Origin: a virus
Length of the DNA stretch: 64,000 nucleotides
Direction: 5' to 3' (one strand)
IMG/VR virus record: IMGVR_UViG_3300025889_000075
Span: 64,001-128,000 of that record
Part shown: positions 2,129 to 44,861 of the stretch, one piece after another
How positions within the stretch are numbered: position 1 is the first letter of the stretch
Layout: every line of letters starts with the position of its first letter
Notes under the pieces: model-generated
What the model was told of the DNA's origin: nothing
The model's database searches: none
What the model saw: only the letters and a program-made list of their open reading frames with translations
Program-made: the position numbers and the translations under genes

Positions 2129-5100
2129 ATGGCTCAGAATATCATTCTCAAGAAGTCTTCCGTTCTCGGAAGGATTCCTGACAGTTCAGATTTGGCATAT
2201 GGCGAACTTGCGCTCAACTATTCTGACGGTAAACTTTATTATAAAAAGTCAAACAATGAAATAGACTTTTTCTTAACCGATTCAAATCTCGATTCTGATT
2301 TCATTACTAGCAGAGTTTCTGCTGGTTCATTAGCACTAACCAATTCTCAAATAAGCGCAGTCGTTGACGAATTAACCAACGACATCAAACCATTACTCGA
2401 CGCGCTCTACGATATTGGTGACTCAGTTAGAACATGGAAAGATCTTTACTTAGATTCTCAGGGTAAAGTTTATTTTGGACCTAGTAACTTTTTCAATTTA
2501 TCTAAACTAAATTCTATCTTAGATTCTGCAGATGTAGTCAGTTTAATTAATAATAATGTTACCGGATTAAACTCTGACCAAGCAAATACATTAATTGATG
2601 CCAAAATTCAAATAATCGACATTGGCGATATTGTTGGCGCTGACGGTAACTCCGGACAAATACTTAAGAGTTTAGGCAACGGTAATGCTACTTGGATTAA
2701 TCAAGCAGATCTTGTTCGCCCACATTTAGTTGCTGGTGCAAACATTACATACGATTCTGCGACAGGTGTTATTACTGCCGATTTATCTTCAGCGGGTTTA
2801 GATTCTGCTGCTGTAACTGGGATAATAGATTCTGCTTATATCCAAGCACGTCAAGCAGATATCTTCCGAGACTCAGCGTTTATAACTGGGATTATTGATA
2901 CTGCTTATATTCAGGCAAGGGATCGTATCCGCGATTCTAATTTTGTTCAGGACATCGTTGATTCAGCATATGTTCAATTACGCCAAGCAGCACCTACTGC
3001 TGCTCAGGTGCGACCGTTTATGGTCGCTGGTGCAAACATTACTTATGACTCAGCAACTGGTGTAATTAGTTCAACTGCGAGCGGAACTCTCGATTCTGCT
3101 GCAGTTATCGGGATAATCGACTCTGCCTATATTCAAGCAAGAGATCGATATAGAGACTCTGGGTTTGTAACGGGACTAATTGATTCATCTTATATTAATT
3201 CAAGAGTAACAGCTTCAACTGATTCTTCTACTGTTAATACTCTGATTGACGCAAAGATTCAAGTAATCGACATAGGTGATGTTGTTGGAGCAGACGGTAA
3301 TTCGGGTCAGGTTCTCAAGAGTTTAGGAAACGGTAACTCTACTTGGGTTAATACGTCAACCTTCGTCACTTTAGATTCTTCCACATTAACAAGTGGGTTT
3401 GCTGGTAATATAATTCCAGCGACAGATTCTACTTATGATCTTGGTGATTCTACTCGCCGTTGGAGAGACTTATATCTCTCCGGTAATACAATTTACCTTG
3501 GCGACAGTGCAGTATTAACGGCAGCGAAAGTTAATCTTATTCCTTCAGTCGCTTTAGATTCATCAATAATTTCTTCTATTGCAGTAACTGCTGCAGGTGG
3601 AATCGATTCAGCATTAACAATTTCTTTAATTGATTCTGCTTATGTTCAAGCAAGACAAACGGTTTATCTTGACAGTTCAACAGTTCAGGGTGTTATTTCT
3701 GCTGCTTATATTCAGGCGAATCAAACTACTTATTCAAACGCTGATTTCGCTGATAGTGCGTTTGTAACTGCTCAGATTAATAATTTGATCGATGGAGCAC
3801 CAGGTGCTCTTAATACATTAAATGAGTTGGCAGCTGCTCTTAATGATGACAGTGATGCTTATAATACATTACTTTCGTTAATTAACGCGAATACTTCAGC
3901 TGTTGCCGGTAAACTCGATTCAGCATTAACAATTTCTTTGATTGATTCTGCTTACATTGCTGCTAGAACTACCTCAGGAACTGATTCTGCCGCTGTTAAC
4001 ACGCTTATTGATGCTAAAATACAAGTAATTGACATTGGAGATGTCGTAGGCGCTGATGGTAACTCTGGTCAATTGCTTAAGAGTTTGGGTAACGGCAACT
4101 CAACGTGGGTTAATGCTGCTGATATAGTAAGACCGCAATTAGTAGCGGGTTCTAATATCACGTATGATTCTGCGACTGGTGTTATTTCTTCTAGTGCTAG
4201 TGGCGTTGACTCCGCGTTAACATCTCAATTGATCGATTCAGCATATGTTCAATTGAGACAAATTAAATATTCTACTGCTGATTTCGTAGATTCTGCTTAC
4301 GTAACAACACAAATCAACAATTTGATCGATGGCGCTCCTGGTGCATTAAATACACTTAATGAATTAGCAGCTGCTTTAAATGACGACAGTCAGGCATATA
4401 ATACTCTACTTGCATTAATTAATGCTAATACTACAGCTGTTGCTGGTAAATTAGATTCTGCTCTTACTACACAATTAATCAATGCTGCGTATATTCAAGC
4501 GAACCAAACTAATTTCTTAGATTCCGCATTAACGACGCAGTTGATTAGTGCTGCCTATATTCAGGCGAATCAAACTACTTATGATTTTCTAGACTCAGCA
4601 GAAGTAATATCATTAATTGACTCTGCTTACATTGCTGCTAGAACTACTTCAGGCACTGACTCTGCTTCCGTTAATTCATTAATCGACGCGAAAATTCAGG
4701 TAATCGATATTGGTGATGTCGTCGGCGCTGATGGCAACTCAGGTCAATTACTTAAGAGTTTAGGCAACGGAAACTCAACTTGGGTTGATGCTTTTGATTC
4801 AACAGCAGTTTCTGGAATTCTTTCAGGATATGCTGGGAATATTGTTCCTTCTGCTGATTCTACTTATAGTTTAGGTTCTCCGACCAAAAAATGGAAAGAC
4901 TTATATCTCTCCGGGAATACAATTTATTTTGGCGATAGCGTAACGCTTTCTGCACAACAAGTTCAATATATTCCGACTTCTGTAGCGACTGTTGTTGACT
5001 CTGCCAGTGTTCGTGCTTTGTTCACTAGCGCAGGAGATTTGAATTATAACGAATCTACAGGAACATTTAGTTTAACAGTTTCTTCTGTTGTTGACTCTGC

Positions 5101-8100
5101 TTATATTGCTGCTCGATCTGGTGCGATAAGTTCCGTCAATAACAATTTTAATCCTGGTGCAAATCAACAGTACAGTTTGGGTGATTCTAACAATCGTTGG
5201 AAAGATTTGTATTTAAGCGATAGTAGTATTATATTTGGTACAACTGCGACGTTGACTGCTGCTAAGATTAATCTTATTCCGACGGTTCTTCTTGATTCAG
5301 CGATAATTAAAAATACAATTATTGACGCTGCTTATATTCAGGCGAATCAAACTACCTATTCTACGGCAGATTTCGTAGATTCTGCTTATGTAACAACACA
5401 AATTAATAATCTGATTGACGCTGCTCCTGGTGCATTAAATACACTTAATGAATTAGCAGCTGCCCTTGGTGATGATGCAAACTTTAGCACAACTATCACA
5501 AACCAAATTGCTGGAAAACTTGATTCGTCATTAACCACGCAACTTATTGATTCTTCTTATATTCAATTAAGACAAGCAGCGCCAACAGCATCTCAAGTTA
5601 GAGCGTTCTTGGTCGCTGGATCAAACGTCACGTATGATTCTGCAACTGGTGTTATCTCTGCTTCTGTCAGCGGCGGTAGCGGGATTAATTCCGACCAAGC
5701 AAATACATTAATTGATGCTTCTATTCAAGCAATTGATATTGACGATTTTACGAATGTATCAGGCACTAATGGGTATTTCCTTAAGAGTCTTGGAAACAGA
5801 GAGGCAACTTGGGCAACAATACCTGCCAGCGGTTTAGATTCTTCAGCAGCAATCGCATTAATCGATTCAGCATATATCCAAGCAAGACAGACAGATATTT
5901 TCAGAGACTCTGCGTTTATAACAGGATTAATTGATTCAGCATATATTCAAGCGAAACAATCTGATATCTTTAGAGATTCTGCTTTTGTAACAGGAATTGT
6001 TGATACTGCCTATATTCAGGCAAGAGATCGAATTCGTGATTCTAATTTTGTTCAGGACATCGTTGATTCAGCGTATGTTCAGTTAAGACAAGCAGCGCCT
6101 ACTGCCGCTCAAGTTAGAGCGTTCTTAGTTGCTGGTAGTAACATTACTTATGATTCTGCTTCGGGTGTAATTTCTTCGACTGCTAGTGGTTCTTTAGATT
6201 CTGCTGGTGCTATTGCATTAATCGATTCTGCTTACATTCAAGCACGGCAATCATCTGGAGGCGGTGGAGGAATTGATTCTGCTGCCGCCAATATTTTAAT
6301 TGACGCTTCTATTCAAGCAATTGATATCGACGATTTCACTAATGTAAGCGGAACTAATGGGTATTTCCTTAAAAGTCTAGGAAACAGAGAAGCAACTTGG
6401 GCAACGATACCTGCTAGTGGGTTAGATTCTGCTGCTGCTATAACGTTGATCGATTCTGCATATATTCAAGCAAGACAAGCAGACATCTACAGAGATTCTG
6501 CCTTTGTCACTGGTATTGTTAATGCTTCATATATTCAATCTAACCAAACTAATTTCTTAGATTCCTCATTAACAACACAGCTAATTAATGCGGCGTATAT
6601 TCAGGCAAATCAAACTACCTATTCGACTGCTGATTTTGTCGATAGTGCTTATGTTACTGCCCAGATCAATAGTTTAATTGACGGTGCGCCAGGAACTCTA
6701 GATACGTTAAATGAAATTGCGGCAGCAATTAACGACGACGCAAATGCTTACACAACCCTAGTAGGTTTGATTAATGCAATGCCAGATTCTTCTTGGATTA
6801 CTGCATTGCCTGTTAGCACCTTTAGTAATGATGCAAATTATCTTGACAGCACAACTGTACAAGGGGTAATTTCTTCTTCTTATATTCAGACAAATCAAAC
6901 TACCTATTCAACGGCAGATTTTCCGGATAGTGCTGGTGTAATCACATTAATTGCCGCAAATGAGACAACTTATTCGACTGCTGATTTTACTGATTCTGCC
7001 TATGTTGCAACTCAACTGGCAACAATAGACTCTGCTTATGTTCAGTTACGTCAAGCAGCACCAACAGCAGCACAAGTTAGAGCGTTCTTAGTTGCTGGGT
7101 CGAATATAACATACGATTCTGCTACTGGTGTTATCAGTTCAACTGCTAGTGGTGGTGTAGATTCTGCTGCTGCTAATAGTTTAATCGACGCTAAAATTCA
7201 GGTTCTTGATATTGGCGATGTTGTTGGAGATGACGGTAACTCTGGTCAATTGCTTAAGAGTTTGGGTAACGGTAACTCAACTTGGGTTAATGCTGCTGAT
7301 ATAGTAAGACCACAGTTAGTTGCAGGCAGCAACATTACTTATGATTCTGCTACTGGTGTAATTAGTTCAACTGCAAGCGGTACATTAGATTCTAATGCAG
7401 TAATCGGCATTGTCGATTCCGCTTATATTCAGGCGAGACAGGCAGATATATTCCGAGACTCTGCCTTTATAACAGGAATTATCAGTTCCTCTTATATTCA
7501 ATCTAATCAAACTAACTTTTTAGATTCTGCTTTAACAACACAGTTGATTAGTGCTGCCTATATTCAGGCGAATCAAACTACGTATTCAACGGCAGATTTC
7601 CCAGATAGTGCTTATGTAACAACGCAGATTAATAATTTAATTGATGGTGCACCTGGTGCGCTTAACACCTTGAATGAATTAGCAGCAGCGTTGAATGACG
7701 ACAGTCAGGCATATAATACATTACTCGCTCTAATTAATAGCAACACAACAGCAATTGCAGGAAAGTTAGACTCTGCTCTTACTATCTCTTTAATAGATTC
7801 AGCATATGTTGCTGCAAGAAGTTCAGCAGGAAGCAGCGGTTTAGATTCTGCTGCAGCAAACAGTTTAATTGATGCTAAAATACAAGTAATTGATATCGGT
7901 GATGTTGTTGGAACTGACGGTACTTCTGGACAAATACTAAAGAGTTTAGGAAACGGTTCTTCTACTTGGATTGATCAAGCAGATCTTGTTCGTCCTCATC
8001 TGGTTGCTGGATCAAATATCACATATGATTCATCCACTGGTGTAATTAGTTCAACTGCTAGTGGCGGTGGTTTAGATTCTGCTGGTGCTATTGCATTAAT

Positions 8101-10696
8101 TGACTCTGCATATATTCAAGCAAGACAAACAGATGTATATCGTGATTCTGCTTTCGTTACTGGTATTGTTACAGCGTCTTATATTCAATCTAATCAAACT
8201 ACGTATTCTACTGCAGATTTTGTTGATTCTGCTTATGTTACTACCCAGTTAGCAACAATAGACTCAGCATATGTCCAGTTACGTCAAGCAGCACCTACTG
8301 CTTCACAGGTTCGTGCTTTCTTAGTTGCTGGTAGTAATATCACTTATGATTCAGCGAGCGGTGTTATTAGTTCAACTGCTAGTGGTGGTAGTGGTTTAGA
8401 TTCAGCAGCAGCAAATATTCTAATTGACGCTTCAATTCAAGCAATTGACATCGACGACTTCACTAATGTTTCTGGTACTAATGGATATTTCCTCAAGAGT
8501 ATCGGTAATCGTGAAGCAACTTGGGCAACGATACCTGCTAGTGGATTAGATTCTGCGTCGGTAATATCGTTAATTGATTCTGCTTATATCCAAGCAAAAC
8601 AGTCTGATATCTTCAGAGATTCAGCGTTTGTAACTGGGATTATTGATACTGCCTACATTCAAGCAAGAGATCGTATTAGAGACTCTAACTTTGTTCAAGA
8701 TATTGCTGATTCTGCTTATGTCCAGTTGAGACAAGCAGCACCAACAGCATCTCAGGTTAGAGCGTTTTTAGTTGCTGGTAGTAACATTACTTATGATTCC
8801 GCTTCGGGTGTTATCAGTTCAACTGCGAGCGGGTCATTAGATTCTGCTGGCGCTATAGCATTAATAGATTCTGCTTATGTACAGTTACGACAAGCAGTAC
8901 CAACGGCAGCACAGGTAAGACCATTCTTAGTCGCTGGTAGCAATATCACTTATGACTCAGCGACTGGTGTAATTTCTTCGACTGCTAGTGGTGGTGGTAG
9001 CGGAATCGATTCTGCTGCTGCTAACTTATTAATTGATGCGTCGATACAAGCAATTGATATTGATGATTTCACTAATGTGTCAGGAACAAACGGCAAATTC
9101 CTTAAGAGCGTAGGTAACAGAGAAGCGACTTGGGCGACAGTGATGGATTCTTCTGGTGTTTCTGGTATGCTTTCAAGTTATGCCGGAAATATTGTTCCCG
9201 CTCTTGACTCTACTTATGACCTTGGATCTTCTTCTAAGAAATGGAAAGATCTTTGGTTGAGTGGTAGCACCATTCACTTAGGCACGGCAAAACTTAAAGC
9301 GGCAGCAGATGGTAATCTTGAAGTATTTGATAGTACTGGTACAACTCGTAAGAGTTTACAAGTTGACGAATTGATTATTGGTACTGGTACGAATAAGATT
9401 AAACTGCGTAAATCTGGTTCTGGTCGATTCGAAGCGAAAAGGTTTAATTCTACAACTGATACTGAAGTAGATTCAGACGCTACTAACGTAATTGTTGTTA
9501 AAGTAAGCGGAAGTGCTTATCAGTTAGATGGAACAACTCGCGCTGATACATTTATGAGTCCAAACGTAACCTATCGTTTTGATCAGTCTCATTCAAGTAA
9601 CAGCGGTCATCGATTAGCAATTTCAACCACAAGCGATGGTACTCATAACAGCGGTGCTGAAATAACTGGAGCGTCTGTTTATAATCAGGTTGGAACTCCT
9701 GGTTCTTCTGGAGCATATACTGAAATTGCTTTTGCTGCAGGAAACACGAAGTATTATTACTATTGTGAATCGCATAGTGGATATGGTGGTACAATTAATA
9801 CACATCCATGGTCTGCTATTTCAGTAACAGATGCAGGTGGTGATGGTTCGTTAACGATGTCAACCAAAGGTGTTATTACTTACACTGGACCAAGTGCTTC
9901 TGAAGTAAGAGCGCATATTGATTCTTCTTATATTCAGGCAAGGCAAGCAGCACCAACAGCAGCACAGGTAAGACCATTCTTAGTTGCTGGCAGCAATATC
10001 ACTTATGACTCCGCTACTGGCGTAATTAGTTCAACAGCGTCAGGTGGTGGCGGTAGTGGTGGTTTAGATTCAGCAGCAGTAATATCTTTAGTTGACTCTG
10101 CTTATGTACAATTAAGGCAGTCTGCTGGAGGTGGCGGTGGTGGATCACAAAATGTGTTCTCAACAATTGCTGTCTCGGGTCAGTCGAGTGTTGTCGCTGA
10201 TACTACAACGGATACGCTAACTCTTGTTGCTGGCAGCAATATTACGTTAACAACCAATGCTTCTACTGATACTATTACTATTGCATCATCTGGCGGTGGT
10301 GGCGGTGGTGCTAGCAGTTTAATCTTTACAATGGATCAATTTGGTACACTAGCGACTACTACAGGTACTGCAAGGTGGTATGCACCGTTTGATTTAACAG
10401 TTAGTAAGATTATCGGTAGGGTTGACAGTGCACCAACTGGAGGATCTATAGATAGTTCTGGCATTGAATTTAGAATACATCGTTACGATTCTACTGGATC
10501 ATCAATAGATACTTTAATGGCTATAAATAATGGTAGTTATAATGTTAAAAATACAAGTCCAACACTAGATTCTGCTGGTGGTGGTGGAGCAGTTACATTT
10601 ACAATGAATGAAGACGATTACCTTCTTCTCGATGTTGAAAAAGTAGGGTCAACTCTTCCAGGACAGAACTTAAAAGTAACCTTTGTATATTCGTAG
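2129..10696 (+). CDS. Giant (2855 aa) modular repeat tail-fibre/virion protein, Asp-Ser rich
   Basis: N-terminal LAYGELALNYSDGKLYYK fibre-anchor-like motif; 5x QINNLIDGAPGALNTLNELAAALNDD coiled-coil motif; 5x YDLG...WKDLYLS motif; cupredoxin-like YYYCESHSGYGG near the C-terminus. Confidence 0.75.
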   Translation: MAQNIILKKSSVLGRIPDSSDLAYGELALNYSDGKLYYKKSNNEIDFFLTDSNLDSDFITSRVSAGSLALTNSQISAVVDELTNDIKPLLDALYDIGDSVRTWKDLYLDSQGKVYFGPSNFFNLSKLNSILDSADVVSLINNNVTGLNSDQANTLIDAKIQIIDIGDIVGADGNSGQILKSLGNGNATWINQADLVRPHLVAGANITYDSATGVITADLSSAGLDSAAVTGIIDSAYIQARQADIFRDSAFITGIIDTAYIQARDRIRDSNFVQDIVDSAYVQLRQAAPTAAQVRPFMVAGANITYDSATGVISSTASGTLDSAAVIGIIDSAYIQARDRYRDSGFVTGLIDSSYINSRVTASTDSSTVNTLIDAKIQVIDIGDVVGADGNSGQVLKSLGNGNSTWVNTSTFVTLDSSTLTSGFAGNIIPATDSTYDLGDSTRRWRDLYLSGNTIYLGDSAVLTAAKVNLIPSVALDSSIISSIAVTAAGGIDSALTISLIDSAYVQARQTVYLDSSTVQGVISAAYIQANQTTYSNADFADSAFVTAQINNLIDGAPGALNTLNELAAALNDDSDAYNTLLSLINANTSAVAGKLDSALTISLIDSAYIAARTTSGTDSAAVNTLIDAKIQVIDIGDVVGADGNSGQLLKSLGNGNSTWVNAADIVRPQLVAGSNITYDSATGVISSSASGVDSALTSQLIDSAYVQLRQIKYSTADFVDSAYVTTQINNLIDGAPGALNTLNELAAALNDDSQAYNTLLALINANTTAVAGKLDSALTTQLINAAYIQANQTNFLDSALTTQLISAAYIQANQTTYDFLDSAEVISLIDSAYIAARTTSGTDSASVNSLIDAKIQVIDIGDVVGADGNSGQLLKSLGNGNSTWVDAFDSTAVSGILSGYAGNIVPSADSTYSLGSPTKKWKDLYLSGNTIYFGDSVTLSAQQVQYIPTSVATVVDSASVRALFTSAGDLNYNESTGTFSLTVSSVVDSAYIAARSGAISSVNNNFNPGANQQYSLGDSNNRWKDLYLSDSSIIFGTTATLTAAKINLIPTVLLDSAIIKNTIIDAAYIQANQTTYSTADFVDSAYVTTQINNLIDAAPGALNTLNELAAALGDDANFSTTITNQIAGKLDSSLTTQLIDSSYIQLRQAAPTASQVRAFLVAGSNVTYDSATGVISASVSGGSGINSDQANTLIDASIQAIDIDDFTNVSGTNGYFLKSLGNREATWATIPASGLDSSAAIALIDSAYIQARQTDIFRDSAFITGLIDSAYIQAKQSDIFRDSAFVTGIVDTAYIQARDRIRDSNFVQDIVDSAYVQLRQAAPTAAQVRAFLVAGSNITYDSASGVISSTASGSLDSAGAIALIDSAYIQARQSSGGGGGIDSAAANILIDASIQAIDIDDFTNVSGTNGYFLKSLGNREATWATIPASGLDSAAAITLIDSAYIQARQADIYRDSAFVTGIVNASYIQSNQTNFLDSSLTTQLINAAYIQANQTTYSTADFVDSAYVTAQINSLIDGAPGTLDTLNEIAAAINDDANAYTTLVGLINAMPDSSWITALPVSTFSNDANYLDSTTVQGVISSSYIQTNQTTYSTADFPDSAGVITLIAANETTYSTADFTDSAYVATQLATIDSAYVQLRQAAPTAAQVRAFLVAGSNITYDSATGVISSTASGGVDSAAANSLIDAKIQVLDIGDVVGDDGNSGQLLKSLGNGNSTWVNAADIVRPQLVAGSNITYDSATGVISSTASGTLDSNAVIGIVDSAYIQARQADIFRDSAFITGIISSSYIQSNQTNFLDSALTTQLISAAYIQANQTTYSTADFPDSAYVTTQINNLIDGAPGALNTLNELAAALNDDSQAYNTLLALINSNTTAIAGKLDSALTISLIDSAYVAARSSAGSSGLDSAAANSLIDAKIQVIDIGDVVGTDGTSGQILKSLGNGSSTWIDQADLVRPHLVAGSNITYDSSTGVISSTASGGGLDSAGAIALIDSAYIQARQTDVYRDSAFVTGIVTASYIQSNQTTYSTADFVDSAYVTTQLATIDSAYVQLRQAAPTASQVRAFLVAGSNITYDSASGVISSTASGGSGLDSAAANILIDASIQAIDIDDFTNVSGTNGYFLKSIGNREATWATIPASGLDSASVISLIDSAYIQAKQSDIFRDSAFVTGIIDTAYIQARDRIRDSNFVQDIADSAYVQLRQAAPTASQVRAFLVAGSNITYDSASGVISSTASGSLDSAGAIALIDSAYVQLRQAVPTAAQVRPFLVAGSNITYDSATGVISSTASGGGSGIDSAAANLLIDASIQAIDIDDFTNVSGTNGKFLKSVGNREATWATVMDSSGVSGMLSSYAGNIVPALDSTYDLGSSSKKWKDLWLSGSTIHLGTAKLKAAADGNLEVFDSTGTTRKSLQVDELIIGTGTNKIKLRKSGSGRFEAKRFNSTTDTEVDSDATNVIVVKVSGSAYQLDGTTRADTFMSPNVTYRFDQSHSSNSGHRLAISTTSDGTHNSGAEITGASVYNQVGTPGSSGAYTEIAFAAGNTKYYYYCESHSGYGGTINTHPWSAISVTDAGGDGSLTMSTKGVITYTGPSASEVRAHIDSSYIQARQAAPTAAQVRPFLVAGSNITYDSATGVISSTASGGGGSGGLDSAAVISLVDSAYVQLRQSAGGGGGGSQNVFSTIAVSGQSSVVADTTTDTLTLVAGSNITLTTNASTDTITIASSGGGGGGASSLIFTMDQFGTLATTTGTARWYAPFDLTVSKIIGRVDSAPTGGSIDSSGIEFRIHRYDSTGSSIDTLMAINNGSYNVKNTSPTLDSAGGGGAVTFTMNEDDYLLLDVEKVGSTLPGQNLKVTFVYS

Positions 10697-12186: not shown

Positions 12187-12468
12187 ATGCCGTCTGCGGA
12201 TTCTTCTACTGGAACCTCAATATTACTAGATTCTTCTTGGGAAAATTATTTCACCTTTTCTAGAAGTATTTCTGGATTAAGTTTTTTAGATTCAGATCTC
12301 CACATTGTAGAAAAAAATATATTTGGTAATTCTTTAGATTCCGATGACGCTGCATTTTCTTTTGGCACTAAACAAATTTCTGGTTTGCTTGATGATTGGG
12401 ATAAGGGATCTGATCCTCCTGTTGCAATACAACCTGGTTATAGAAAACAATTTTGGTGGGATGGATAA
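12187..12468 (+). CDS. Small Asp-Ser-rich hypothetical protein
   Basis: 93 aa, tightly packed between neighbours; four DS motifs. Confidence 0.55.
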   Translation: MPSADSSTGTSILLDSSWENYFTFSRSISGLSFLDSDLHIVEKNIFGNSLDSDDAAFSFGTKQISGLLDDWDKGSDPPVAIQPGYRKQFWWDG

Positions 12469-13487
12469 TGCCTGATTTTAATGAATTCGAAGGCAAAACC
12501 ATGATAAAAATACGTGGGTTAATTCTTGGTGGCGATCAATACCAAGAAAAAACTCAAGTGTTTTCAACACAAAGGTTTACTAGAGGTACTGCAGCAACTT
12601 TCGCTTCAGGTGGAGCAGCTGAACCTGGCGGCGTTGTTTTTACTACTACTGGTACACACAGTTGGACAGTTCCAGCTGGTGTTACAGAAGTTCATGTTGT
12701 TTGTGTTGGTGGTGGAGGTGGGTCAGCTGGATCTGGATCAAACAGAGCTGGTGCAGGCGGCGGTGGCGGTGCATTATCGTATGGTACTGTTTCAGTAACC
12801 GCAGGTTCTTCATATACTGTTGTTGTTGGCGCTGGTGGTGCAGGTGGATCAAATAATGCATCAAATGGCGTTTCCGGCGGTGCCTCCTATTTCAGCGCTA
12901 CAGATGTTTTATATGCTGGTGGCGGTAGCGGTGGTGCTTGGGCGAGTCAGAGTTCTGGAGCAGGATCAGCAACATCAGGCGGTTCTAGTTCAGGTTCGGC
13001 AAGACTTGGTGGTGGTTCAGGTGGTTCAGGTGGAAACTCTTTTTACAATGGTGCAGGCGGCGGTGGCGGCGGTGCAGGTGGATACTCTGGTAATGGCGGC
13101 AACGGGAGTTATAGTAATAACAATGTCGGTGGCACTAATGGATCTGGTGGTGCTGGAGGAGGTGGTGGCGGTAGCAGCGGTGGCCATGGCGGCGGTGGTG
13201 GTGTCGGCATATACGGTGAAGGCACCAGTGGAAACTTTGGTGGCAGTACTGGTGGATATGGCGGTTCTGGTGGAGATAATGGGCAAAATGATAATGCTAA
13301 TGGTACTACTAAAGGTGCTAATGGTGGCGCGTATGGGGGCGGTGGTGGTGCACAAGAGGACGATACTACGTCTTCTGGTGGCAATGGTGCCAATGGGGTG
13401 GTTCGAGTTATATGGGGTACTGGACGATCATTTCCTTCTACTGACGTAGATGCAGCATCATCAACTGCCGGAGAAACAACAGTTTAA
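12468..13487 (+). CDS. Glycine-rich tail fibre-associated protein
   Basis: FTTTGTHSWTVPAGVTEVHVVCVGGGGG...GANGVVRVIW glycine-rich domain; start placed at the TAATG overlap at 12468. Confidence 0.7.
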   Translation: MPDFNEFEGKTMIKIRGLILGGDQYQEKTQVFSTQRFTRGTAATFASGGAAEPGGVVFTTTGTHSWTVPAGVTEVHVVCVGGGGGSAGSGSNRAGAGGGGGALSYGTVSVTAGSSYTVVVGAGGAGGSNNASNGVSGGASYFSATDVLYAGGGSGGAWASQSSGAGSATSGGSSSGSARLGGGSGGSGGNSFYNGAGGGGGGAGGYSGNGGNGSYSNNNVGGTNGSGGAGGGGGGSSGGHGGGGGVGIYGEGTSGNFGGSTGGYGGSGGDNGQNDNANGTTKGANGGAYGGGGGAQEDDTTSSGGNGANGVVRVIWGTGRSFPSTDVDAASSTAGETTV

Positions 13488-14800: not shown

Positions 14801-16171
14801 ATGGCGATTAGTGTTCCTGCTCTTCTGGATTCTGCACAGACCTACGCGAGCGCGGCAGATAGTTCTAATGAGGCAATCAACTTACTACAAATAGTTGATG
14901 CTTCTCACGCGTACACGTCTGGTTATACCCGAAGAAACTATTATGACAGTGCTGGTCAATTACCCACTGCTGATAGTTCTATGGAGGGTATGATCACGCT
15001 CGTTAAAGGCACACAAGCAGGTGGACTAGGTAATGGTCTGTATCTATGTACAGGAACTGCTTGGACAGAATTTTATGATTTAGATTCTGGCGATTATATC
15101 GACCCATTTTCTTTACAAGGTTCAACTTCTGGGTTTGTTGCAGGTGGGCATTATACTTTTGCTACAGCATTAAATTCTATTGGAACATATTCTTTCGGAA
15201 GTTCTGTTACTCTTTCAGATCATGGTGATTTGATTAGTGCATCCGCATATTCTGCACCGTCTAATGATGCTTCTTATGGATATGTTCATGGTGGGGTTAG
15301 AACAGCGCCAGTTCCTAATCCTTCTGTGGATAGATTTTCTTTTTCTAGTTCTACTGGTGGAACAAATGTTGGTAGTTTGTCGTTTTCGTATTATTATGCT
15401 GCAGGTTTTAGTTCACCTTCTTCTTATGGATATAACGTAGGTGGACAAGGGCAGACAATTATTCCATCTTTTCCTAGTACATACGGAAATTCAATTCAGA
15501 AATTTCCTCTAACGAGTTCAACTACCTCAACAGACATTGGAGATTTAGTTGTTAACGTACACAGGCAAATTGCTAATAATTCTACTGAATACGGTTACAA
15601 TTCTGGTGGTACAGCCTCACCATGGTCACCATCTCCAACAGCATTTAGTGCTCCAACTCTAGGACCAAGCGGACCTTCTTGGGGTCCAGGATCATATGGA
15701 ACAAATGATGCCAGCCCAGGCACAACTGATTTTTTTGTTGCTGTTAGAGATAAATTTCCATTTGCATCAGACACTAATTCATCTTGGATTGCTAATTTAA
15801 ATCCTTTCAGATCATCAGGCACTGGTGTTAACTCTTCAGACAAAGGGTTTTTCTTTACTGGATATCAAAGAACAAGTCCCTGGATTGGGATTAATGCCCT
15901 CCAACATTTTCCGTTTGCAAGCGATACTACTATTACTAGTAATGGTCTTCTTCAAACAGTAAATACATATCCTGCAGTGTATGTTGAAGGTTCTGGTTCT
16001 TCTTCAACAGATTATGGATATATCCATGGAAGTAGAGGAACTGCTTCTTATCCAGCAATTACTAGTGACATAATTAGATTTCCATGGTCTGCTACAGGCG
16101 GTGGAGAAACAGACGTTGGAGACATAACTTCTGGATATGGTAGGATTAATGCCACAGGACATCAGGTGTAA
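14801..16171 (+). CDS. Adaptor (class A) + Kelch-like beta-propeller protein, paralog 1 (divergent)
   Basis: Repeats GY..GG...I.KFPF.S......GDL; C-terminal GHQV. Confidence 0.7.
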   Translation: MAISVPALLDSAQTYASAADSSNEAINLLQIVDASHAYTSGYTRRNYYDSAGQLPTADSSMEGMITLVKGTQAGGLGNGLYLCTGTAWTEFYDLDSGDYIDPFSLQGSTSGFVAGGHYTFATALNSIGTYSFGSSVTLSDHGDLISASAYSAPSNDASYGYVHGGVRTAPVPNPSVDRFSFSSSTGGTNVGSLSFSYYYAAGFSSPSSYGYNVGGQGQTIIPSFPSTYGNSIQKFPLTSSTTSTDIGDLVVNVHRQIANNSTEYGYNSGGTASPWSPSPTAFSAPTLGPSGPSWGPGSYGTNDASPGTTDFFVAVRDKFPFASDTNSSWIANLNPFRSSGTGVNSSDKGFFFTGYQRTSPWIGINALQHFPFASDTTITSNGLLQTVNTYPAVYVEGSGSSSTDYGYIHGSRGTASYPAITSDIIRFPWSATGGGETDVGDITSGYGRINATGHQV

Positions 16172-16173
16172 TT

Positions 16174-18626: not shown

Positions 18627-18629
18627 ACA

Positions 18630-19820: not shown

Positions 19821-19828
19821 GAACTATT

Positions 19829-21028: not shown

Positions 21029-21053
21029 GAGTTAATTCTCACATAATTTTTTT

Positions 21054-21061
21054 TATAAATA
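21054..21061 (+). promoter_or_regulatory. T4-type late promoter TATAAATA
   Basis: Exact consensus in the only sizeable gap within the array. Confidence 0.8.
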
Positions 21062-21091
21062 GATTGTGATAATTTGTGTGAGGATATTTCC

Positions 21092-21406: not shown

Positions 21407-21418
21407 GGTAATTAATTC

Positions 21419-25069: not shown

Positions 25070-25072
25070 CTT

Positions 25073-26223: not shown

Positions 26224-26226
26224 GTT

Positions 26227-27384: not shown

Positions 27385-27387
27385 ATT

Positions 27388-31684: not shown

Positions 31685-32296
31685 ATGGCGACAAATCAAT
31701 ATTTCTCTCGCGGATCTAAATCCGAGCAAAGACTTTATGAGGATCTAGTAATAGAATCTTTGAAGATGTACGGGCAAGATGTTTATTATGTCCCGAGAGA
31801 AATCGTGCGCAGAGATACTATTTTCAATGAAGCGACATTATCTCGTTTTTTAAATGCATATAAAATAGAAATGTATTTAGAAAATACAGATGGGTTTGAG
31901 GGCGAAGGCGATTTGTTTACTAAGTTCGGTATTCAAATTAGAGATACTGCTAATTTTGTTGTTTCAAGAAAAAGATTTAACTGGGAAGTTGGTAGTATAG
32001 AAAATGGTGGTGATCCAAATAAATTCTATAGACCAAGAGAAGGTGATGTAATTCATTTACCTCTTTCTAATTCTACTTTCCAGATTATGAAAGTTGAAGA
32101 TGAAACACCATTTTATCAATTAAAAAATCTTCCAACGTTTAGACTTTCTTGCGAATTATTTGAATACGCTGATGAAAACTTCGATACTCAAATTGCTGAA
32201 ATTGATAATATTGAAACTTACGCAGCATATCAATATGTTCTTACTATACGTACGGCAGAACAAGCCAGAGCAACTGCAACAGCGAGTATTGACTAA
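31685..32296 (+). CDS. gp14: Neck/head-completion protein gp14 (N-terminal core)
   Basis: ESLKMYGQDVYYVPRE...GFEGEGDLFTKFG...RPREGD...CELFEY. Confidence 0.88.
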   Translation: MATNQYFSRGSKSEQRLYEDLVIESLKMYGQDVYYVPREIVRRDTIFNEATLSRFLNAYKIEMYLENTDGFEGEGDLFTKFGIQIRDTANFVVSRKRFNWEVGSIENGGDPNKFYRPREGDVIHLPLSNSTFQIMKVEDETPFYQLKNLPTFRLSCELFEYADENFDTQIAEIDNIETYAAYQYVLTIRTAEQARATATASID

Positions 32297-33102
32297 TGGC
32301 AGGTATTAGCTCATTATCATTAACTTTCGCTGGAGCAAACTATCAAGTAGCTCCAAGCGTTACAATTGCGCTTCCAGATTTAGATTCTGGTAACGCTACT
32401 GCAACTATCACTTTAAATGATAGCGGATTTGTCAGTTCTATTAATGTTACTGATGGTGGTGCTTATTATACCTCTGCTCCAAATGCATCATTTACTTACG
32501 TTGACTCTGATGGAAACAGCGGAACAATTATTGTTGGTACTACTATTAATATTGACGGCACAGTTACTGCAGTAGATAAACCAATAACATCAGCGCCAAT
32601 TGTTTCCTCTTCTATAACAATAGATTCGGCGACTGGTACAAAAAATGATTTTAGAGCAAGAGTTACTTCGATACTCGATTCAGCAAACAGCGTAGTTAGT
32701 GGGTTCAATATAATCGATTCTGGTGGGGGTTATACAGTAGCGCCAGCGGTTACAATTGATTTCTCTTACACAGATTTAAATTATGTGGTAGGAGAAAATG
32801 CTATACAACAAAATGCTACGTTTAATATGGTTGGTGAAGTTCAGGGTTGGAACGATTCGGATAGAGAATTAAAACTAATTCGAGTTGGTGCTTCTGATGG
32901 TAAATTTCATGAATGGAATACTACCAATCCAGTTCGAGGCGAAACTTCAGGTTCTTCTGGTTCTATACTGTCAGTTAGAGAAGTACAAACAATGGATCCT
33001 GATGCTGGCGGTGGTTCTTCTGGTAACGTTACTGATTTCGATGTTTCTGCGCTCGAGTTTATTGATTTCAGCGAAAATAATCCGTTCGGAGATCCAATCT
33101 AA
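32296..33102 (+). CDS. gp14 C-terminal extension encoded as a separate ORF
   Basis: GA.Y..AP.VTI repeats and terminal DFSENNPFGD motif, which typically ends gp14 in marine T4-like phages. Confidence 0.65.
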   Translation: MAGISSLSLTFAGANYQVAPSVTIALPDLDSGNATATITLNDSGFVSSINVTDGGAYYTSAPNASFTYVDSDGNSGTIIVGTTINIDGTVTAVDKPITSAPIVSSSITIDSATGTKNDFRARVTSILDSANSVVSGFNIIDSGGGYTVAPAVTIDFSYTDLNYVVGENAIQQNATFNMVGEVQGWNDSDRELKLIRVGASDGKFHEWNTTNPVRGETSGSSGSILSVREVQTMDPDAGGGSSGNVTDFDVSALEFIDFSENNPFGDPI

Positions 33103-33878
33103 TGTTAACTGGTCATTTCTATCACGAACATATTCGCAAATCAGTAGCGGTCTTTGGATCTCTTTTCAACGACATTTATATTTTTAGAAAAACAAATAGT
33201 GGCGTTGGTCAAGGTCAAATGAAAGTTCCTTTGAGTTATGGTCCAAGGAATAATTTCTTAACACGTATCGCAGAGATGGCAAACGGCGAAGAAGCAGAGC
33301 GTCAGTTAGCAATCAGATTACCGAGAATGTCGTTTGAGATTCTAGGTTTAAATTATGATCCTGTTAGAAAATTACCGACCAACAATTCTACAGTTCAGGC
33401 ATTGGTTGGATCAAACAGTCAGACTGCTAGAACTAAAATGTTCACCGCTGTTCCTTACAACATTTTATTTCAATTAAATATTTATGGTAAAACTCAAGAC
33501 GACGCGCTACAAATAACAGAGCAAATCTTGCCTTACTTTAATCCACAATATACAGTTAGAGTTAAACCAATTGCTGATATTCCAGCAATTATAGATGATG
33601 TACCAATTATCTTGCAAGGCGTAACATTTACTGACGATTATGAAGGATCTATTGAACAAAGAAGAACAATTCTTTATACTTTAGATTTTGAAATGAAAAT
33701 AAACTTTTATGGACCTGTCGTTTCTAAAGATATTGTCACAGAAGTTCAAACGAGTTTGTTTCAAATGGATACTGGTTTATCAGATAGTGATGAATTACTT
33801 AGCACGTTAACAACTACTGCTACTCCTTCTGGGGTTGGACCAGATAGTGATTTTTCTTTATTAACTACTATATCATAG
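33102..33878 (+). CDS. gp15: Tail sheath stabiliser / terminator gp15
   Basis: FYHEHIRK...FGSLFN...VPLSYGP...LPRMSFE...QILPYFNP. Confidence 0.92.
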   Translation: MLTGHFYHEHIRKSVAVFGSLFNDIYIFRKTNSGVGQGQMKVPLSYGPRNNFLTRIAEMANGEEAERQLAIRLPRMSFEILGLNYDPVRKLPTNNSTVQALVGSNSQTARTKMFTAVPYNILFQLNIYGKTQDDALQITEQILPYFNPQYTVRVKPIADIPAIIDDVPIILQGVTFTDDYEGSIEQRRTILYTLDFEMKINFYGPVVSKDIVTEVQTSLFQMDTGLSDSDELLSTLTTTATPSGVGPDSDFSLLTTIS

Positions 33879-35922: not shown

Positions 35923-37671
35923 ATGGCACTTTTTACCCAATCCGCGTCTCCTGGTATCACTATAAAGGAAATAGACTTAACGGGTGTTGTCCCGAATGTC
36001 ACGACTTCTACTGGTGCCTTTGTTGGAGATTTTAGTTGGGGACCAGCGGAAACACCAGTTCTAGTTGACAATGAAGGGACTTTGGTGTCTACGTTCGGTT
36101 CACCAACGACAAGTAACAATGTTGACTTTTTGTCAGCAGCAGCGTTCTTAAAATATTCGAACAGCCTTTATGTTGTTCGCGAAGCAACTGGTGTTGCTAA
36201 AAACGCATATTTTGCAACAGGAATTTCTGTAACAGATCCATTTGTCAAAGACGCAACAGATTTTGATAATCAAGCATCCAGTTTGGATTCTGATGGTCAT
36301 ACTTTTGTTGCTCGCTATCACGGCACAGCAGGAAACAGTATTAAAGTTTCTGTTTGCCCAGTAGAAGACGGTGATGCTGCATTCTCATCATGGACGTATC
36401 GAACTGAATTCGATGGCGCTCCAGGAACGAGTTCATATGCATCAGCAGCTGGTGGATCAAACGACGAAGTTCATGTTGTAGTTGTTGATGAAGACGGTGA
36501 TCTCACTGGAACTGCTGGTACAGTTCTTGAAAGATATCCTTATGTCTCTCTCGCAACTGACGCTAAAACATCTGATGGCACTAAAAACAACTGGAAAGAC
36601 GTAATTAATGCGCGTTCTAGTTATATTTGGGCAGTCAGCATGAACAAAGCGAACGATGTTTCTGATCAGCAATTTAGCGAAGCATCAACAGCAGCAAGCA
36701 CTAATTTCGTTTTAGCAGATCCAGTATCAAAAGATTTCAGTTTAACTGCCGGCGTAAATTCTGGCGTGTTTGGAACATCTGAATATTTGTCTGGTTTCGA
36801 TAAATTCGAAAGCAACGAAGACATTCAGGTTGATTTCTTAATCGCTCCTGGAATGTCTTCTTCATCAGATCAAGCAACTGTAGTAAATGATCTAGTTGCA
36901 ACTGCTGCTAGTTTAAGAAAAGATTGCGTTGTTGTTACTTCTCCAAACCGCGCTGGCGTTGTTGGGGTAACTTCTGCTGCCACGATTGTTACTAATACGA
37001 CAACTTGTGCGAACCTATTTACGGCATCATCTTATCTGATTATGGATAACAACTACTTGAAAGTTTATGATAAATATAACGACAAGTATGTGTTTATTCC
37101 TGCTGCTTCATCAACCGCTGGTTTGATGGCAGGTACAGATGCAGTTGCTGCTCCATGGTTCTCGCCAGCGGGTAATCGTAGGGGTCAATATTTCGGTGTT
37201 ACTTCTCTCGCCTATTCAGCTAGTCAATCTCAACGAGATACGCTTTACAAGGCAGGTGTTAACCCAATCGTTAATCTTCCTGGCCAGGGTGTTACTCTCT
37301 TTGGTGACAAAACTAAAGAGTCTCGCCCATCAGCGTTCGATAGGATTAACGTTCGTCGCTTGTTCTTGGCAGTTGAGAGAGCAATCTCTGCTGCTGCTAG
37401 AAACGTTATGTTTGAATTTAACGACGAATTTACAAGAGCGGAATTTGTTAATATCGTTGAACCATTCTTGAGAGAAATCAAGGGTCGTCGCGGTATCACA
37501 GATTTCAGAGTAGTTTGTGACGAAACTAACAACACGGCAGCGGTCATTGATCGTAACGAGTTTATTGCTAGTGTCTTCATCAAACCCGCACGTTCTATTA
37601 ACTACATTACATTGAACTTTGTAGCGGTTAGAACTGGCGTAAACTTTGAAGAAGTAGTTGGTTTAGTCTAA
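35923..37671 (+). CDS. gp18: Tail sheath protein gp18
   Basis: SPGITIKEIDLT...WGP...PWFSPAG..RG...FDRINVRRLF...IKPARSINYITLNF. Confidence 0.96.
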   Translation: MALFTQSASPGITIKEIDLTGVVPNVTTSTGAFVGDFSWGPAETPVLVDNEGTLVSTFGSPTTSNNVDFLSAAAFLKYSNSLYVVREATGVAKNAYFATGISVTDPFVKDATDFDNQASSLDSDGHTFVARYHGTAGNSIKVSVCPVEDGDAAFSSWTYRTEFDGAPGTSSYASAAGGSNDEVHVVVVDEDGDLTGTAGTVLERYPYVSLATDAKTSDGTKNNWKDVINARSSYIWAVSMNKANDVSDQQFSEASTAASTNFVLADPVSKDFSLTAGVNSGVFGTSEYLSGFDKFESNEDIQVDFLIAPGMSSSSDQATVVNDLVATAASLRKDCVVVTSPNRAGVVGVTSAATIVTNTTTCANLFTASSYLIMDNNYLKVYDKYNDKYVFIPAASSTAGLMAGTDAVAAPWFSPAGNRRGQYFGVTSLAYSASQSQRDTLYKAGVNPIVNLPGQGVTLFGDKTKESRPSAFDRINVRRLFLAVERAISAAARNVMFEFNDEFTRAEFVNIVEPFLREIKGRRGITDFRVVCDETNNTAAVIDRNEFIASVFIKPARSINYITLNFVAVRTGVNFEEVVGLV

Positions 37672-42151: not shown

Positions 42152-43507
42152 ATGCAACAAGTTTCTTATGATCAATTAGTTGAGAAATGGGCACCTGTAC
42201 TCAACGAAGAGTCTGCTGGTAAGATCCAGGACGCTCATCGTCGTGCAGTAACTGCCGCTGTTCTCGAAAACCAAGAAATCGCTTTCCGTGAAGAGGCTGC
42301 TCAAAATGGAATGCTTAACGAAACTCCAGCAAACGTAACGACTAACGTTGCTAACTGGAACCCAGTACTTATCGCCCTCGTGCGTCGTGCAATGCCTAAC
42401 TTGATGGCATATGACGTTTGTGGTGTTCAACCTATGTCTGGTCCTACTGGTTTGATCTTCGCTATGAAGTCAACCTATAAGACTACTCGTGGTGGCGCTA
42501 CTACTGGCGACGAAGCGTTGTTTAATGAACCACGCGCCGCATATTCTGGTGATTCATCAATAACTTCATCTGGTTATTCATCAGGTTTGGACGGTGTTAC
42601 TGATACAGATAACGACAGTTCTATCGCTGATTCAGGCGGTTCTTATATTCCTAATGGAATTGGAACTCCTCCTGCTGGTGCTGGTATGTCTACTGCTGAC
42701 GCTGAATCTTTGGGTAACACTGGATCTGCTTTTGCAGAAATGGGTTTCACCATTGAAAAAGCAACAGTAACTGCACAATCACGTGCTCTGAAAGCAGAAT
42801 ACACGCTTGAACTCGCTCAAGACTTGAAAGCAATTCATGGTCTTGACGCTGAGACAGAACTTGCTAATATTCTGTCAACAGAAATCCTTGCTGAGATTAA
42901 CCGCGAAGTAATTCGTACGATTAACTCTCAAGCATTGATTGGTGCTACTACGTCTAACCTTCAAACTAAAGGTATTTTTGATCTTTCTACAGACGCTGAT
43001 GGTCGTTGGTCTGCAGAAAAATTCAAGGGTCTTGTAGTTCAGTTGGATCGTGAGTGTAACCAAATCGCTAAAGACACTCGTCGTGGTAAGGGTAACGTTG
43101 TAATCTGTTCTTCAGATGTCGCGACTGCTCTTTCTGCTTCAGGTATGCTTGATTATACTCCTGCTATGTCTACTTCTTTGCAAGTTGACGACACAGGTAA
43201 CACTTTCGCTGGTACTTTGAATGGTCGAGTTCGCGTTTACATCGATCCATATGCTGGCGCTGACTACATCACAGTTGGTTATAAGGGTACTAACCCATAT
43301 GACGCTGGTGTGTTCTACTGTCCTTACGTGCCCCTCCAAATGGTACGTGCGGTTGGTGAGAATGACTTCCAGCCACGTATCGGGTTCAAGACTCGTTATG
43401 GCATGGCTTCCAACCCATACGTTGGTTCAACTCCTGCTAACGGTCTTGCTACAGTACGTACTAACCAATACTATCGTATCTTCCGCGTCGATAATATTTT
43501 GACCTAA
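42152..43507 (+). CDS. gp23: Major capsid protein gp23
   Basis: GVQPMSGPTGLIFAM...SRALKAEYTLELAQDLKAIHGLDAE...FQPRIGFKTRYG. Confidence 0.98.
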   Translation: MQQVSYDQLVEKWAPVLNEESAGKIQDAHRRAVTAAVLENQEIAFREEAAQNGMLNETPANVTTNVANWNPVLIALVRRAMPNLMAYDVCGVQPMSGPTGLIFAMKSTYKTTRGGATTGDEALFNEPRAAYSGDSSITSSGYSSGLDGVTDTDNDSSIADSGGSYIPNGIGTPPAGAGMSTADAESLGNTGSAFAEMGFTIEKATVTAQSRALKAEYTLELAQDLKAIHGLDAETELANILSTEILAEINREVIRTINSQALIGATTSNLQTKGIFDLSTDADGRWSAEKFKGLVVQLDRECNQIAKDTRRGKGNVVICSSDVATALSASGMLDYTPAMSTSLQVDDTGNTFAGTLNGRVRVYIDPYAGADYITVGYKGTNPYDAGVFYCPYVPLQMVRAVGENDFQPRIGFKTRYGMASNPYVGSTPANGLATVRTNQYYRIFRVDNILT

Positions 43508-43628: not shown

Positions 43629-44861
43629 ATGGCAACAGTTAATCTTAAAGAAGTAATGGAAGCAGTACAAAAGAAAATTTATGCTGCTGATTCTTCTACC
43701 TCTAATCTTCAAGATTTAATCTATCTTCTCAAAGCAGCAAAAAGAGGAGATGGTACTATGGTTCAGCAGGTAGCGTCTGCTTCTGTTTTGCCTGATTTAA
43801 CTGACAGTGCTGCTGATACTGAGATGATAGCATTCGTACAGAATGAAGGCAAGTTGTATTTTAAACAGGACAGTTCTGGTACGACTGTTTGGAAAACGTA
43901 TACAGTAACTCCGTCAGCACCATCATTTGTTTATGGTGGCGAAACGAGTGGATTTTTTTCTGGTTCTTTATTATATCCAGGAGGCGGCGGGACAAGCAGT
44001 TCATCAATCATAAAAATTCCATTTACGTCCGATACAGGATCTAGTTCTCAAGGGAGCACAACTGTTGCGATGAATAATGCGCACGGATGGTCTAATTCTA
44101 CAAATGGATATATTGCTGGTGGTTCAAGCAGTCCAGTTACTGCCTTCGACTTAACGCAGATTGAAAAATTCCCAATGTCTTCTGCAGCGAGTTCTTCTGA
44201 CACTGGTGCAGATCTGTCCACTTTTCGCGGTGGCGGCGCTGCCAACCACAATGAAAGTTACGGGTACGCTACAGCAGGTAATCCTGTTGCTTCACCTACT
44301 GTTGCTAACGCTACTGATAAATATACTTTTGCGAACGAAACATCAAATGCTGCTATAATCTCAGGACTAACAAACGTCAGTCCTCAGATGCGTTATTCTA
44401 GTGGAGTCCCTAGTCCAACATATGCTTATATAGCAGGTGGACAAAACCCTGCTGTAAGTGCTTATCTTAACAATATTGAAAAATTTCCTTTCGCTGCTGA
44501 AGATACTGTTAGTGATGTTGGTGATTTATTTTTAGCACATCACTCTGGTGCTGCAGTAGCGTCAACAGAAAATGGTTACATTATGGGAGGAAACATTAGT
44601 CCTACTTACACTAATACAATTCAAAAATGGTCTTTTAGTTCTGACGGTAATGGTACTGATGTAGCAGATTTAACAGCTGCCAGTTATGGATCAGGTGGTT
44701 GTTCTTCAACGACTGCTGGATATAAAGCAGGTGGTATCATTACATCACCAACCTTTACTACGTTGACAAATACTGAAAAATTCACTTTTTCATCTGAGTC
44801 CAATTCTTCGAATATAGGTACAAGTCCGATCGGTTCTGATGCAGCAACCCAACAGGTATAA
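43629..44861 (+). CDS. Adaptor (class D) + beta-propeller protein, orphan paralog
   Basis: Same repeat (IEKFPFAAEDTVSDVGDL; SSDGNGTDVADL) and QQV end; closest by eye to 19829. Confidence 0.75.
   Translation: MATVNLKEVMEAVQKKIYAADSSTSNLQDLIYLLKAAKRGDGTMVQQVASASVLPDLTDSAADTEMIAFVQNEGKLYFKQDSSGTTVWKTYTVTPSAPSFVYGGETSGFFSGSLLYPGGGGTSSSSIIKIPFTSDTGSSSQGSTTVAMNNAHGWSNSTNGYIAGGSSSPVTAFDLTQIEKFPMSSAASSSDTGADLSTFRGGGAANHNESYGYATAGNPVASPTVANATDKYTFANETSNAAIISGLTNVSPQMRYSSGVPSPTYAYIAGGQNPAVSAYLNNIEKFPFAAEDTVSDVGDLFLAHHSGAAVASTENGYIMGGNISPTYTNTIQKWSFSSDGNGTDVADLTAASYGSGGCSSTTAGYKAGGIITSPTFTTLTNTEKFTFSSESNSSNIGTSPIGSDAATQQV

Follow-up and report, generated by a model that had tools for sequence, protein, structure and literature searches.

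The locus

The window analysed here is a stretch of 64,000 nucleotides (bases 64001-128000) of the 155-kb IMG/VR contig IMGVR_UViG_3300025889_000075, which derives from an uncultured T4-like marine myophage. Our subject is a short motif beginning with Asp-Ser (DS) that recurs in the 2855-residue tail fibre encoded near the 5' end of the window and in further tail proteins of this phage. A preliminary description of the window had read DS as a virion-wide O-glycosylation sequon served by modifying enzymes encoded in the same stretch. Open reading frames (ORFs) are uncurated longest-ORF calls, positions are those of the window unless given as genome positions, and related genomes carry our own labels (G005 and the like).

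Matches to PHROG and Pfam place gp13 to gp23 (gp13, gp14, gp15, gp16, gp17, gp18, gp19, gp20, gp21, gp22 and gp23) at 30928-43507, with replication genes after them. Directly 5' of the neck genes lie the giant fibre, small fibre-accessory ORFs, an array of paralogues of about 400 amino acids (aa), a sulfotransferase and a 2-oxoglutarate (2OG)-Fe(II) oxygenase (Table 1). The gp23 protein shares 67% identity with its counterpart in Phage C48C1, and about 59% with the counterparts in Pelagibacter and Methylophilales myophages. Shine-Dalgarno-like words precede 44% of the ORFs (background 8%), and phages of SAR11 and OM43 have 47-49%; this usage, resembling that of Proteobacteria phages, suggests a host outside the Bacteroidota.

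Table 1. Features of the window, with DS counts as observed vs expected
Feature	Position	Strand	Family match or DS content
C-terminal part of 855-aa fibre-like protein (genome 63501-66068)	1..2068	+	DS 13 vs 8.3, not significant
2855-aa tail fibre, mosaic of about 8 repeat modules	2129..10696	+	116 DS, 77 DSA
93-aa ORF	12187..12468	+	DS 4 vs 2.1; no family match
Glycine-rich protein, tail-fibre-assembly-like	12453..13487	+	Pfam PF21722, PHROG 863; zero DS
11 paralogues with N-terminal adaptor and propeller, plus two adaptor-only ORFs (21074-21406, 25073-25288)	14801..28638	+	
Sulfotransferase	28689..29528	+	Pfam PF13469, E 2e-20
Two-domain 2OG-Fe(II) oxygenase-like protein	29528..30883	+	PHROG 2954 and 61, Pfam PF13640
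gp14 (neck), two abutting ORFs (31685-32296 and 32296-33102)	31685..33102	+	PHROG 460 match split across both
gp15	33102..33878	+	DS 2 vs 1.1
gp18 sheath	35923..37671	+	DS 1 vs 4.1
gp23 major head protein	42152..43507	+	DS 3 vs 1.9, all within one D/S/G-rich loop
Twelfth adaptor and propeller paralogue, downstream of gp23	43629..44861	+	DS at residues 21, 59 and 81 only
NAD-dependent sugar epimerase, 244 aa	53293..54027	+	Pfam PF01370
'GT25-like' ORF	55760..56479	+	PF01755 13.7 bits vs cut-off 24; no Pfam or PHROG family
UDP-glucose-dehydrogenase-like ORF	59925..60815	+	PHROG 9148, E 2.8e-11 only

Asp-Ser-Ala marks the peripheral tail proteins

DS counts were set against within-protein shuffles or, for unshuffled sets, against the expectation from composition. 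The fibre is as DS-rich as had been described: it contains 116 DS for 31.9 expected after shuffling (z 17), only 11 of the reverse dipeptide Ser-Asp (SD), and 10 Asp-Thr (DT) for 23 expected. The signature is not virion-wide, however. Neck, sheath, tube and head proteins pooled have 21 DS for 23.1 expected, with no excess in head, sheath, tube, neck or portal; the upstream baseplate pooled has 71 for 67.5, and the fibre-accessory proteins and paralogues, taken as whole proteins, 47 for 47.9. Clusters that the preliminary description had pointed to in gp15, gp18 and gp23 lie within chance (Table 1), the 93-aa ORF shows no significant excess (p 0.14 by shuffling), and the DS-rich extension of gp14 is marginal (7 against 3.0 in the second, C-terminal ORF, uncorrected p 0.015). 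Non-structural proteins carry 68 DS for 91.5 expected; this observed/expected ratio (O/E) of 0.72 bears out the remark that DS is sparse in replication proteins, but it is close to the whole-proteome ratios of 0.79-0.88 in seven motif-free phages among the 13 genomes compared; a mild deficit of this kind seems to be a general baseline and not a sign of avoidance. When structural and non-structural proteins are compared, the excess belongs to the peripheral tail only, and the DS observation is real overall but only partly confirmed. The split of gp14 is a feature of its own: the two ORFs share base 32296, the first accounts for positions 14-209 of the PHROG head-closure match and the second for 222-376, the latter also contains an internally duplicated 'G-F-V-x-x-I-x-V-x-D-G-G-x-Y-T-x-A-P'-like unit, and gp14 of the relative G005 is one 314-aa ORF.

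Clustering of DS in the propeller adaptors, and its scarcity in the blades, proved correct. All 36 DS of the 12 propeller paralogues fall within the N-terminal 100 residues (9.9 expected), and the SD-rich blades have none (31.4 expected). These adaptor sites occupy about three positions common to the paralogues (for example 'PTADSANHG') and so represent few independent events.

A sharper picture emerges from tripeptides. The six orderings of D, S and A have equal expectations from composition and were used as an internal control (Table 2). The outer-baseplate set consists of the gp7-like, gp9-like, gp8, 1948-aa and 856-aa proteins, encoded just upstream of the window (genome 45075-57260), and its 20 DSA against 1.9 expected show that the signal reaches beyond the fibre repeats; the tripeptide test thereby overturned a reading based on dipeptides, in which fibre repeats were the only source. 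Across the four protein sets with 19-77 DSA, the variants DTA, ESA, NSA, DGA and DAA number 0-4 each (ESA 0-1, NSA 0-2, DTA 1-3), marking the motif as requiring a preceding Asp and as specific for Ser. DT is also depleted in the outer baseplate (19 against 35 expected). DSD and DSV are enriched about 6-9-fold in relatives; DSD counts 20 against 2.2 in G005 and 16 against 2.1 in G001, and here 5 against 2.1 in the outer baseplate and 3 against 2.7 in the fibre. In G005, DS is the top-ranked dipeptide in three proteins and the third of 304 across the structural proteins. These counts support a short, directional and Ser-specific DSA-type motif on several non-homologous peripheral tail proteins.

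Table 2. DSA and the five other orderings of D, S and A, by protein set
Protein set	DSA observed	DSA expected	Other orderings
Fibre	77	4.1	0-4
Five outer-baseplate proteins	20	1.9	0-4
Inner baseplate	1	1.3	0-2
Neck, sheath, tube, head	2	1.5	1-2
Non-structural	2	5.7	3-5
Structural, relative G005	25	6.3	4-8
Non-structural, relative G005	3	8.1	3-7

That composition and repeats alone generate these numbers, with the motif itself unselected, is very unlikely. Such an account does hold for gp23, gp18, gp15 and the 93-aa ORF, and repeats supply most of the fibre count, their expansion having inflated the raw DS number. For the peripheral tail, however, it is already contradicted: five outer-baseplate proteins that are weakly repetitive, or not repetitive at all, exceed the expectation 10-fold for DSA but not for the other orderings, DS ranks as high as it does in G005, and the pattern is replicated in the IMG/VR gp8 loci described below.

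The motif is selected at the protein level. Sets of 19-20 DSA sites are encoded by 13-14 different 9-mers, with both Ser codon families used as elsewhere, and the DSA DNA word is present in frame 0 only. We rejected a DNA-level cause, in which GAY-TCN codon pairs would reflect a pressure for GANTC: outside the fibre there are 526 GANTC for about 507 expected, Glu-Ser is unenriched, and the word keeps to one frame. The fibre gene itself has 113 GANTC sites in 8.6 kb (about 30 expected), its DS being mostly encoded GAY-TCN. This density looks like a by-product of the motif, but it would be of consequence should the phage be a target of a GANTC-specific methylase or nuclease.

Sites turn over between orthologues

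Within the 13 genomes and long contigs, DSA-enriched proteins were found in the present phage, G005, G001 and G002, with one each in C48C1 and G007, and none in HTVC008M, Mosig, Melnitz, S-SKS1, S-SSM7 or DLP_6. The gp6 protein is never enriched, and enrichment of the gp7-like, gp9-like and gp8 proteins is confined to the group formed by the present phage, G005, G001 and G002. Individual sites are rarely kept: when the present phage is compared with G005, orthologues have just 5 of 39 and 5 of 59 DS positions in common. In 120 gp8 homologues DS averages about 7 per protein for 3.2 expected, with SD near expectation at 2.6, and the 871 DS of this family are spread over 51 alignment columns, a few nearly fixed and many alternating with unrelated dipeptides. 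Among 80 IMG/VR gp8 loci, DS O/E is 2.4 at 40% or more identity to the present gp8 and 0.99 below 33%; the same fold in outgroup phages gives about 1.0-1.2.

An AlphaFold model of gp8 (predicted local distance difference test score, pLDDT, 87; predicted template modelling score, pTM, 0.82) matches T4 gp8 (1n7z, E 1.4e-9). All six of its own DS fall in inter-strand coil and not at helix starts, as do about 18-19 of the family's 25 commonest DS columns. Loops of this kind would be accessible to an enzyme.

The fibre belongs to a very large family with at least 250 metagenomic homologues; in the 119 listed, median O/E is 3.4 for DS and 0.47 for DT. Searches of isolated phages with the fibre repeats (tblastn) returned no match, or one to the N-terminal ~40 residues only. 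One module ('APxxLxTLNELAAAL') matches the tail collar fibre PDB 9d93, and no solved relatives were found for the other modules. Giant proteins of Phage C48C1 (L019:21012-31055) and of G005 (650 and 711 aa) have short repeats of the 'R-x-S-T-Y-x-G-T-Y' / 'F-x-G-x-R' type and match a 1231-aa protein of the present phage (genome 57274-60969) at 25-33% identity. They represent a different, DS-poor fibre architecture.

A glycan island and its co-variation with the motif

Of the modifying enzymes that the preliminary description had listed in the window, the sulfotransferase, the 2OG-Fe(II) oxygenase and the epimerase are backed by Pfam, whereas the UDP-glucose-dehydrogenase-like ORF has a PHROG match only and the GT25-like ORF scores below the family cut-off. 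Four other genes do pass the GT25 profile (PF01755, 33-50 bits for a cut-off of 24), all of them outside the window, at genome 9434-10009, 16015-16695, 17832-18533 and 18530-19177. They lie in an island at genome 7.6-19.2 kb (L017:2645-14178) that also encodes a GT8-like 261-aa protein, a radical SAM/SPASM protein, a HAD-nucleotidyltransferase fusion, a cupin, methyltransferases and several ORFs without a family; the island products are soluble. The 261-aa protein is conserved, and 22% of the members among its language-model neighbours carry GT8. In the 155-kb genome we found no match to GT2 (PF00535) or GT1/GT4-type (PF00534) transferases. A Maf-type enzyme was rejected as well, with no PF01973 match at E <= 1 over the whole genome, although a miniature or divergent form could escape the profile.

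We then placed the transferases on a gp8 tree (FastTree, 89 tips, rooted on DLP_6, supports as SH-like values). A 61-tip clade has a DS O/E of 2.26 and an SD O/E of 1.15, and DS O/E outside it is 1.10; the DS-rich or DS-poor trait changes 17 times on the tree against a mean of 30 after label shuffling. Several GT25 genes occur in G005, G006, G007, G001, G010, G011, G015, G019 and G016 (one gene in the last, a partial contig). None was found in the complete genomes of C48C1, HTVC008M, Mosig, Melnitz and DLP_6, nor in G012 (92% complete), G013 (81%) and G014 (61%). Fifty gp8 contigs of 7-43 kb also gave no GT25 match; the island is about 30 kb from gp8 in the present genome, so contigs this short are uninformative. 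The eight tips with several GT25 genes are all DS-rich (pooled gp8 DS 67 against 25.4), and for the six outgroup tips without GT25 the pooled figure is 22 against 18.6. Nested within the DS-rich clade (supports 0.95 and 1.0), the subclade of C48C1 has 9 DS against 8.0, and neither a GT25 nor a GT8-like gene was found in the complete C48C1 genome. L262 (61% complete, no GT25 found) has 5 DS against 3.6 and is sister to the DS-rich, GT25-positive L235. The GT8-like gene is present in G005, G001, G007, G010, G015 and G019 and absent from all DS-poor genomes, so that it tracks the motif almost as well as GT25 does. The expectation that related phages would swap the motif together with their glycosyltransferases was thus supported, including the nested loss in C48C1.

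Two further observations concern the same genomes. In G010, which is DS-rich and GT25-positive, the GT8-like gene (G010:C1:71099-71880) is split over three frames and interrupted by one TAA, which points either to gene decay or to an error of assembly. Five small genes at genome 140047-142820 are common to the DS-rich G005, G001 and G007 only, are absent from C48C1 and the pelagiphages, and track the clade as the GT25 genes do.

Three enzymes of the window itself do not track the motif. DS-rich G010 and G011 lack the sulfotransferase and DS-poor S-SKS1 has it, and DS-poor Phage C48C1 has an annotated nucleotide-sugar epimerase and a syntenic UDP-glucose-dehydrogenase-like gene, which speaks against the roles proposed for these three. 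The same data bear on the idea that the motif is functional but not glycosylated, serving either another modification (by the 2OG-Fe(II) oxygenase, the sulfotransferase or the radical SAM/SPASM protein) or the binding of cations or a host ligand. The first two genes do lie inside the fibre region and the third in the glycan island, the motif is limited to host-contacting parts, and DSD is common in relatives. Nevertheless, the distribution of the sulfotransferase is wrong, 2OG oxygenases are widespread in marine T4-like phages in general, marine outgroup phages living in the same ionic medium lack the excess, and we know of no metal- or sugar-binding motif that is plain D-S-A. We regard a function of this other kind as improbable.

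A possible glycosylation tag or an unmodified turn

A directional, Ser-specific motif on accessible parts of unrelated proteins, whose sites turn over and which is lost together with transferases, resembles a modification tag. From this we infer that the Ser may be modified, that the modification would be a glycosylation, and that a transferase of the island would start it. In the scheme we propose, Asp-Ser-Ala (with Asp or Val third in relatives) would be a protein-level recognition tag of one large clade of marine T4-like phages, limited to the peripheral tail; in the present genome it lies on the outer baseplate, on the fibre repeats and on the anchor domains at the N-termini of the 12 propeller paralogues, which are receptor-binding proteins. 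The four soluble phage GT25 enzymes and the GT8-like transferase would O-glycosylate the tag Ser in the cytoplasm, either ahead of tail assembly or while it proceeds, so that the apparatus of host recognition becomes coated with sugar. We hold this to be a tentative but quite possible explanation, and the best of those considered. The O-glycosylation sequon of the preliminary description would survive in it, carried by the peripheral-tail motif, its turnover, its loop location and its co-variation with transferases; the virion-wide extent, the sulfation and the Bacteroidetes mechanism would not.

Several observations weigh against such a tag, and many of them are expected under its main rival: DS followed by a small residue could be an unmodified Asx-turn or helix N-cap, multiplied by repeats and paralogy as a habit of the clade, and the GT25/GT8-like island could remodel the core or O-chain of the host lipopolysaccharide (LPS) for superinfection exclusion, with ancestry as its only link to the motif. 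The fibre modules come in 5-19 copies each, 85 of the 116 fibre sites fall into three repeat-context clusters, and the adaptor sites recur at shared positions. A helix N-cap with a hydrophobic staple has a hydrophobic N' residue, a capping Asp and a hydrophobic N4 residue, with the helix following. The fibre DS logo, hydrophobic-D-S-A-x-hydrophobic, can be read in this way, with Asp as N-cap, a hydrophobic residue at -1 in 72% of sites and at +4 in 62%, and Ala after DS in 77 of 116. In a monomer AlphaFold model of fibre residues 196-410, of low confidence (pLDDT 47) and used cautiously for secondary structure alone, all six long helices begin 1-3 residues past the Asp of a DS, and two DS lie in 'TYDSATG' hairpins; the DS residues of the fibre are probably helix starts as well. 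At the 'D' position, the repeat unit admits just D, N, S and T (and P in relatives), with D 91%, N 6% and P 2% over 1015 fibre-family units, and the 'S' position of the same units holds S in 81%, A in 14% and T in 1.5%. The preference for Ala over Thr fits a 'small residue' constraint, as does the alternation of DS with DA at some gp8 columns. Furthermore, the plain DS excess of the five outer-baseplate proteins is modest (39 against 26.3).

The genetic association has weaknesses too. It amounts to roughly one gain and one or two losses, with small gp8 counts per genome (1-13); the cyanophages S-SKS1 and S-SSM7 have a single GT25 gene each yet are DS-poor, and G011 is DS-rich without a GT8-like gene. 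GT25 and GT8 are classical transferase families of the LPS and lipooligosaccharide core. Glycosyltransferases of pelagimyophages have been published as modifiers of the host O-chain, with no fibre motif described (PMC7029224).

An unmodified turn would not, on the other hand, predict the joint loss of motif and transferases in the C48C1 lineage. It also leaves unexplained why the same gp8 fold shows no comparable enrichment in outgroups, why the excess is directional, and why it is restricted to one clade and to peripheral tail proteins. The gp8 sites lie in loops at unconserved positions and the fibre sites probably at helix starts, so one structural role does not cover all of them. The preliminary argument that proteins unrelated in fold cannot owe the motif to homology holds in that it recurs independently across families, but repeats and paralogy have multiplied the counts in the fibre and the paralogues. 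Overall, the unmodified turn seems to us somewhat unlikely as a full account.

Extended to the whole clade, the tag reading would mean that these marine phages glycosylate their host-recognition apparatus at Asp-Ser-(Ala/Asp/Val) with LPS-type GT25 and GT8 enzymes repurposed to protein, a statement that is, if anything, slightly more tentative than the tag itself. If true, sequon-directed glycosylation of proteins would be seen in a phage for the first time. Ocean phages of a large and common group would decorate their host-contacting parts, with effects on host range, protease and grazer resistance, adsorption to debris and stickiness, and LPS-type transferase genes of marine phages would gain a second role beside host-surface remodelling. 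Motif density would offer a simple genomic read-out of tail decoration, and thus a signature predicting shielded virion surfaces. If the motif is structural only, it would still serve as a clade marker for giant fibres, a very large family without a solved structure.

Comparison with known systems

The general O-glycosylation system of the Bacteroidota acts in the periplasm on exported proteins, transferring a lipid-linked glycan to the sequon D-(S/T)-(A/I/L/V/M/T), and enrichment of this sequon in the target protein class is its signature (PMC12871550). Like that sequon, the present motif spans three residues, in which the hydroxyl residue must be preceded by Asp and is followed by one that is small or hydrophobic. 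Thr is accepted there, whereas here it is excluded (DTA 1-3 against DSA 19-77) and Asp is permitted at the third position. The targets also differ: exported periplasmic proteins there, and here T4-like tail proteins, among them a fibre at whose N-terminus no hydrophobic, signal-peptide-like leader was seen, a signal-peptide predictor not having been used. With the wrong compartment, the exclusion of Thr and a high Shine-Dalgarno use that suggests a host outside the phylum, we rejected the mechanism, on which the preliminary description had drawn, and keep the host system as an analogy.

Mycobacteriophage virions provide a phage precedent. According to PMC12619734, which describes the work of Freeman et al. 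2023, they are glycosylated by phage enzymes on the C-terminal parts of capsid and tail-tube subunits, which gives a shield. Phage-encoded glycosyltransferases acting on structural proteins to give a shield are common to both cases, although here this is a proposal from genes. The difference is that our capsid and tube are motif-free, that only the peripheral tail would be modified, that a defined tripeptide is implied, and that there is no GT2-type gene (PF00535).

In gene order the closest parallel is the host recognition cluster of pelagimyophages and cyanomyophages, a hypervariable island in which fibres are mixed with modification enzymes and which occupies the structural module between the baseplate genes and the neck genes (Zaragoza-Solas et al. 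2020, PMC7029224). Window positions 1-30883 have the same layout, with fibres, paralogues, the sulfotransferase and the 2OG oxygenase directly 5' of gp13 and gp14; the GT25 and GT8-like genes here differ in forming a separate island and are not found among the fibres.

The closest working analogy for the proposed chemistry may be SdgB, which O-GlcNAcylates (adds N-acetylglucosamine to) Ser in a minimal DSD motif in vitro; its targets are the serine-aspartate repeat adhesins of staphylococci, long fibrous surface proteins that the sugar coat shields from proteases (PMC8561734). The present motif likewise sets Asp next to the Ser, and DSD itself is enriched in G005 and G001, with DSA dominating in the present fibre. 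SdgB is a GT-B enzyme that acts on uninterrupted SD arrays, whereas here isolated Φ-D-S-A/D/V sites (Φ, hydrophobic) would be served by candidate GT25 and GT8-like enzymes in a genome with no PF00534 match.

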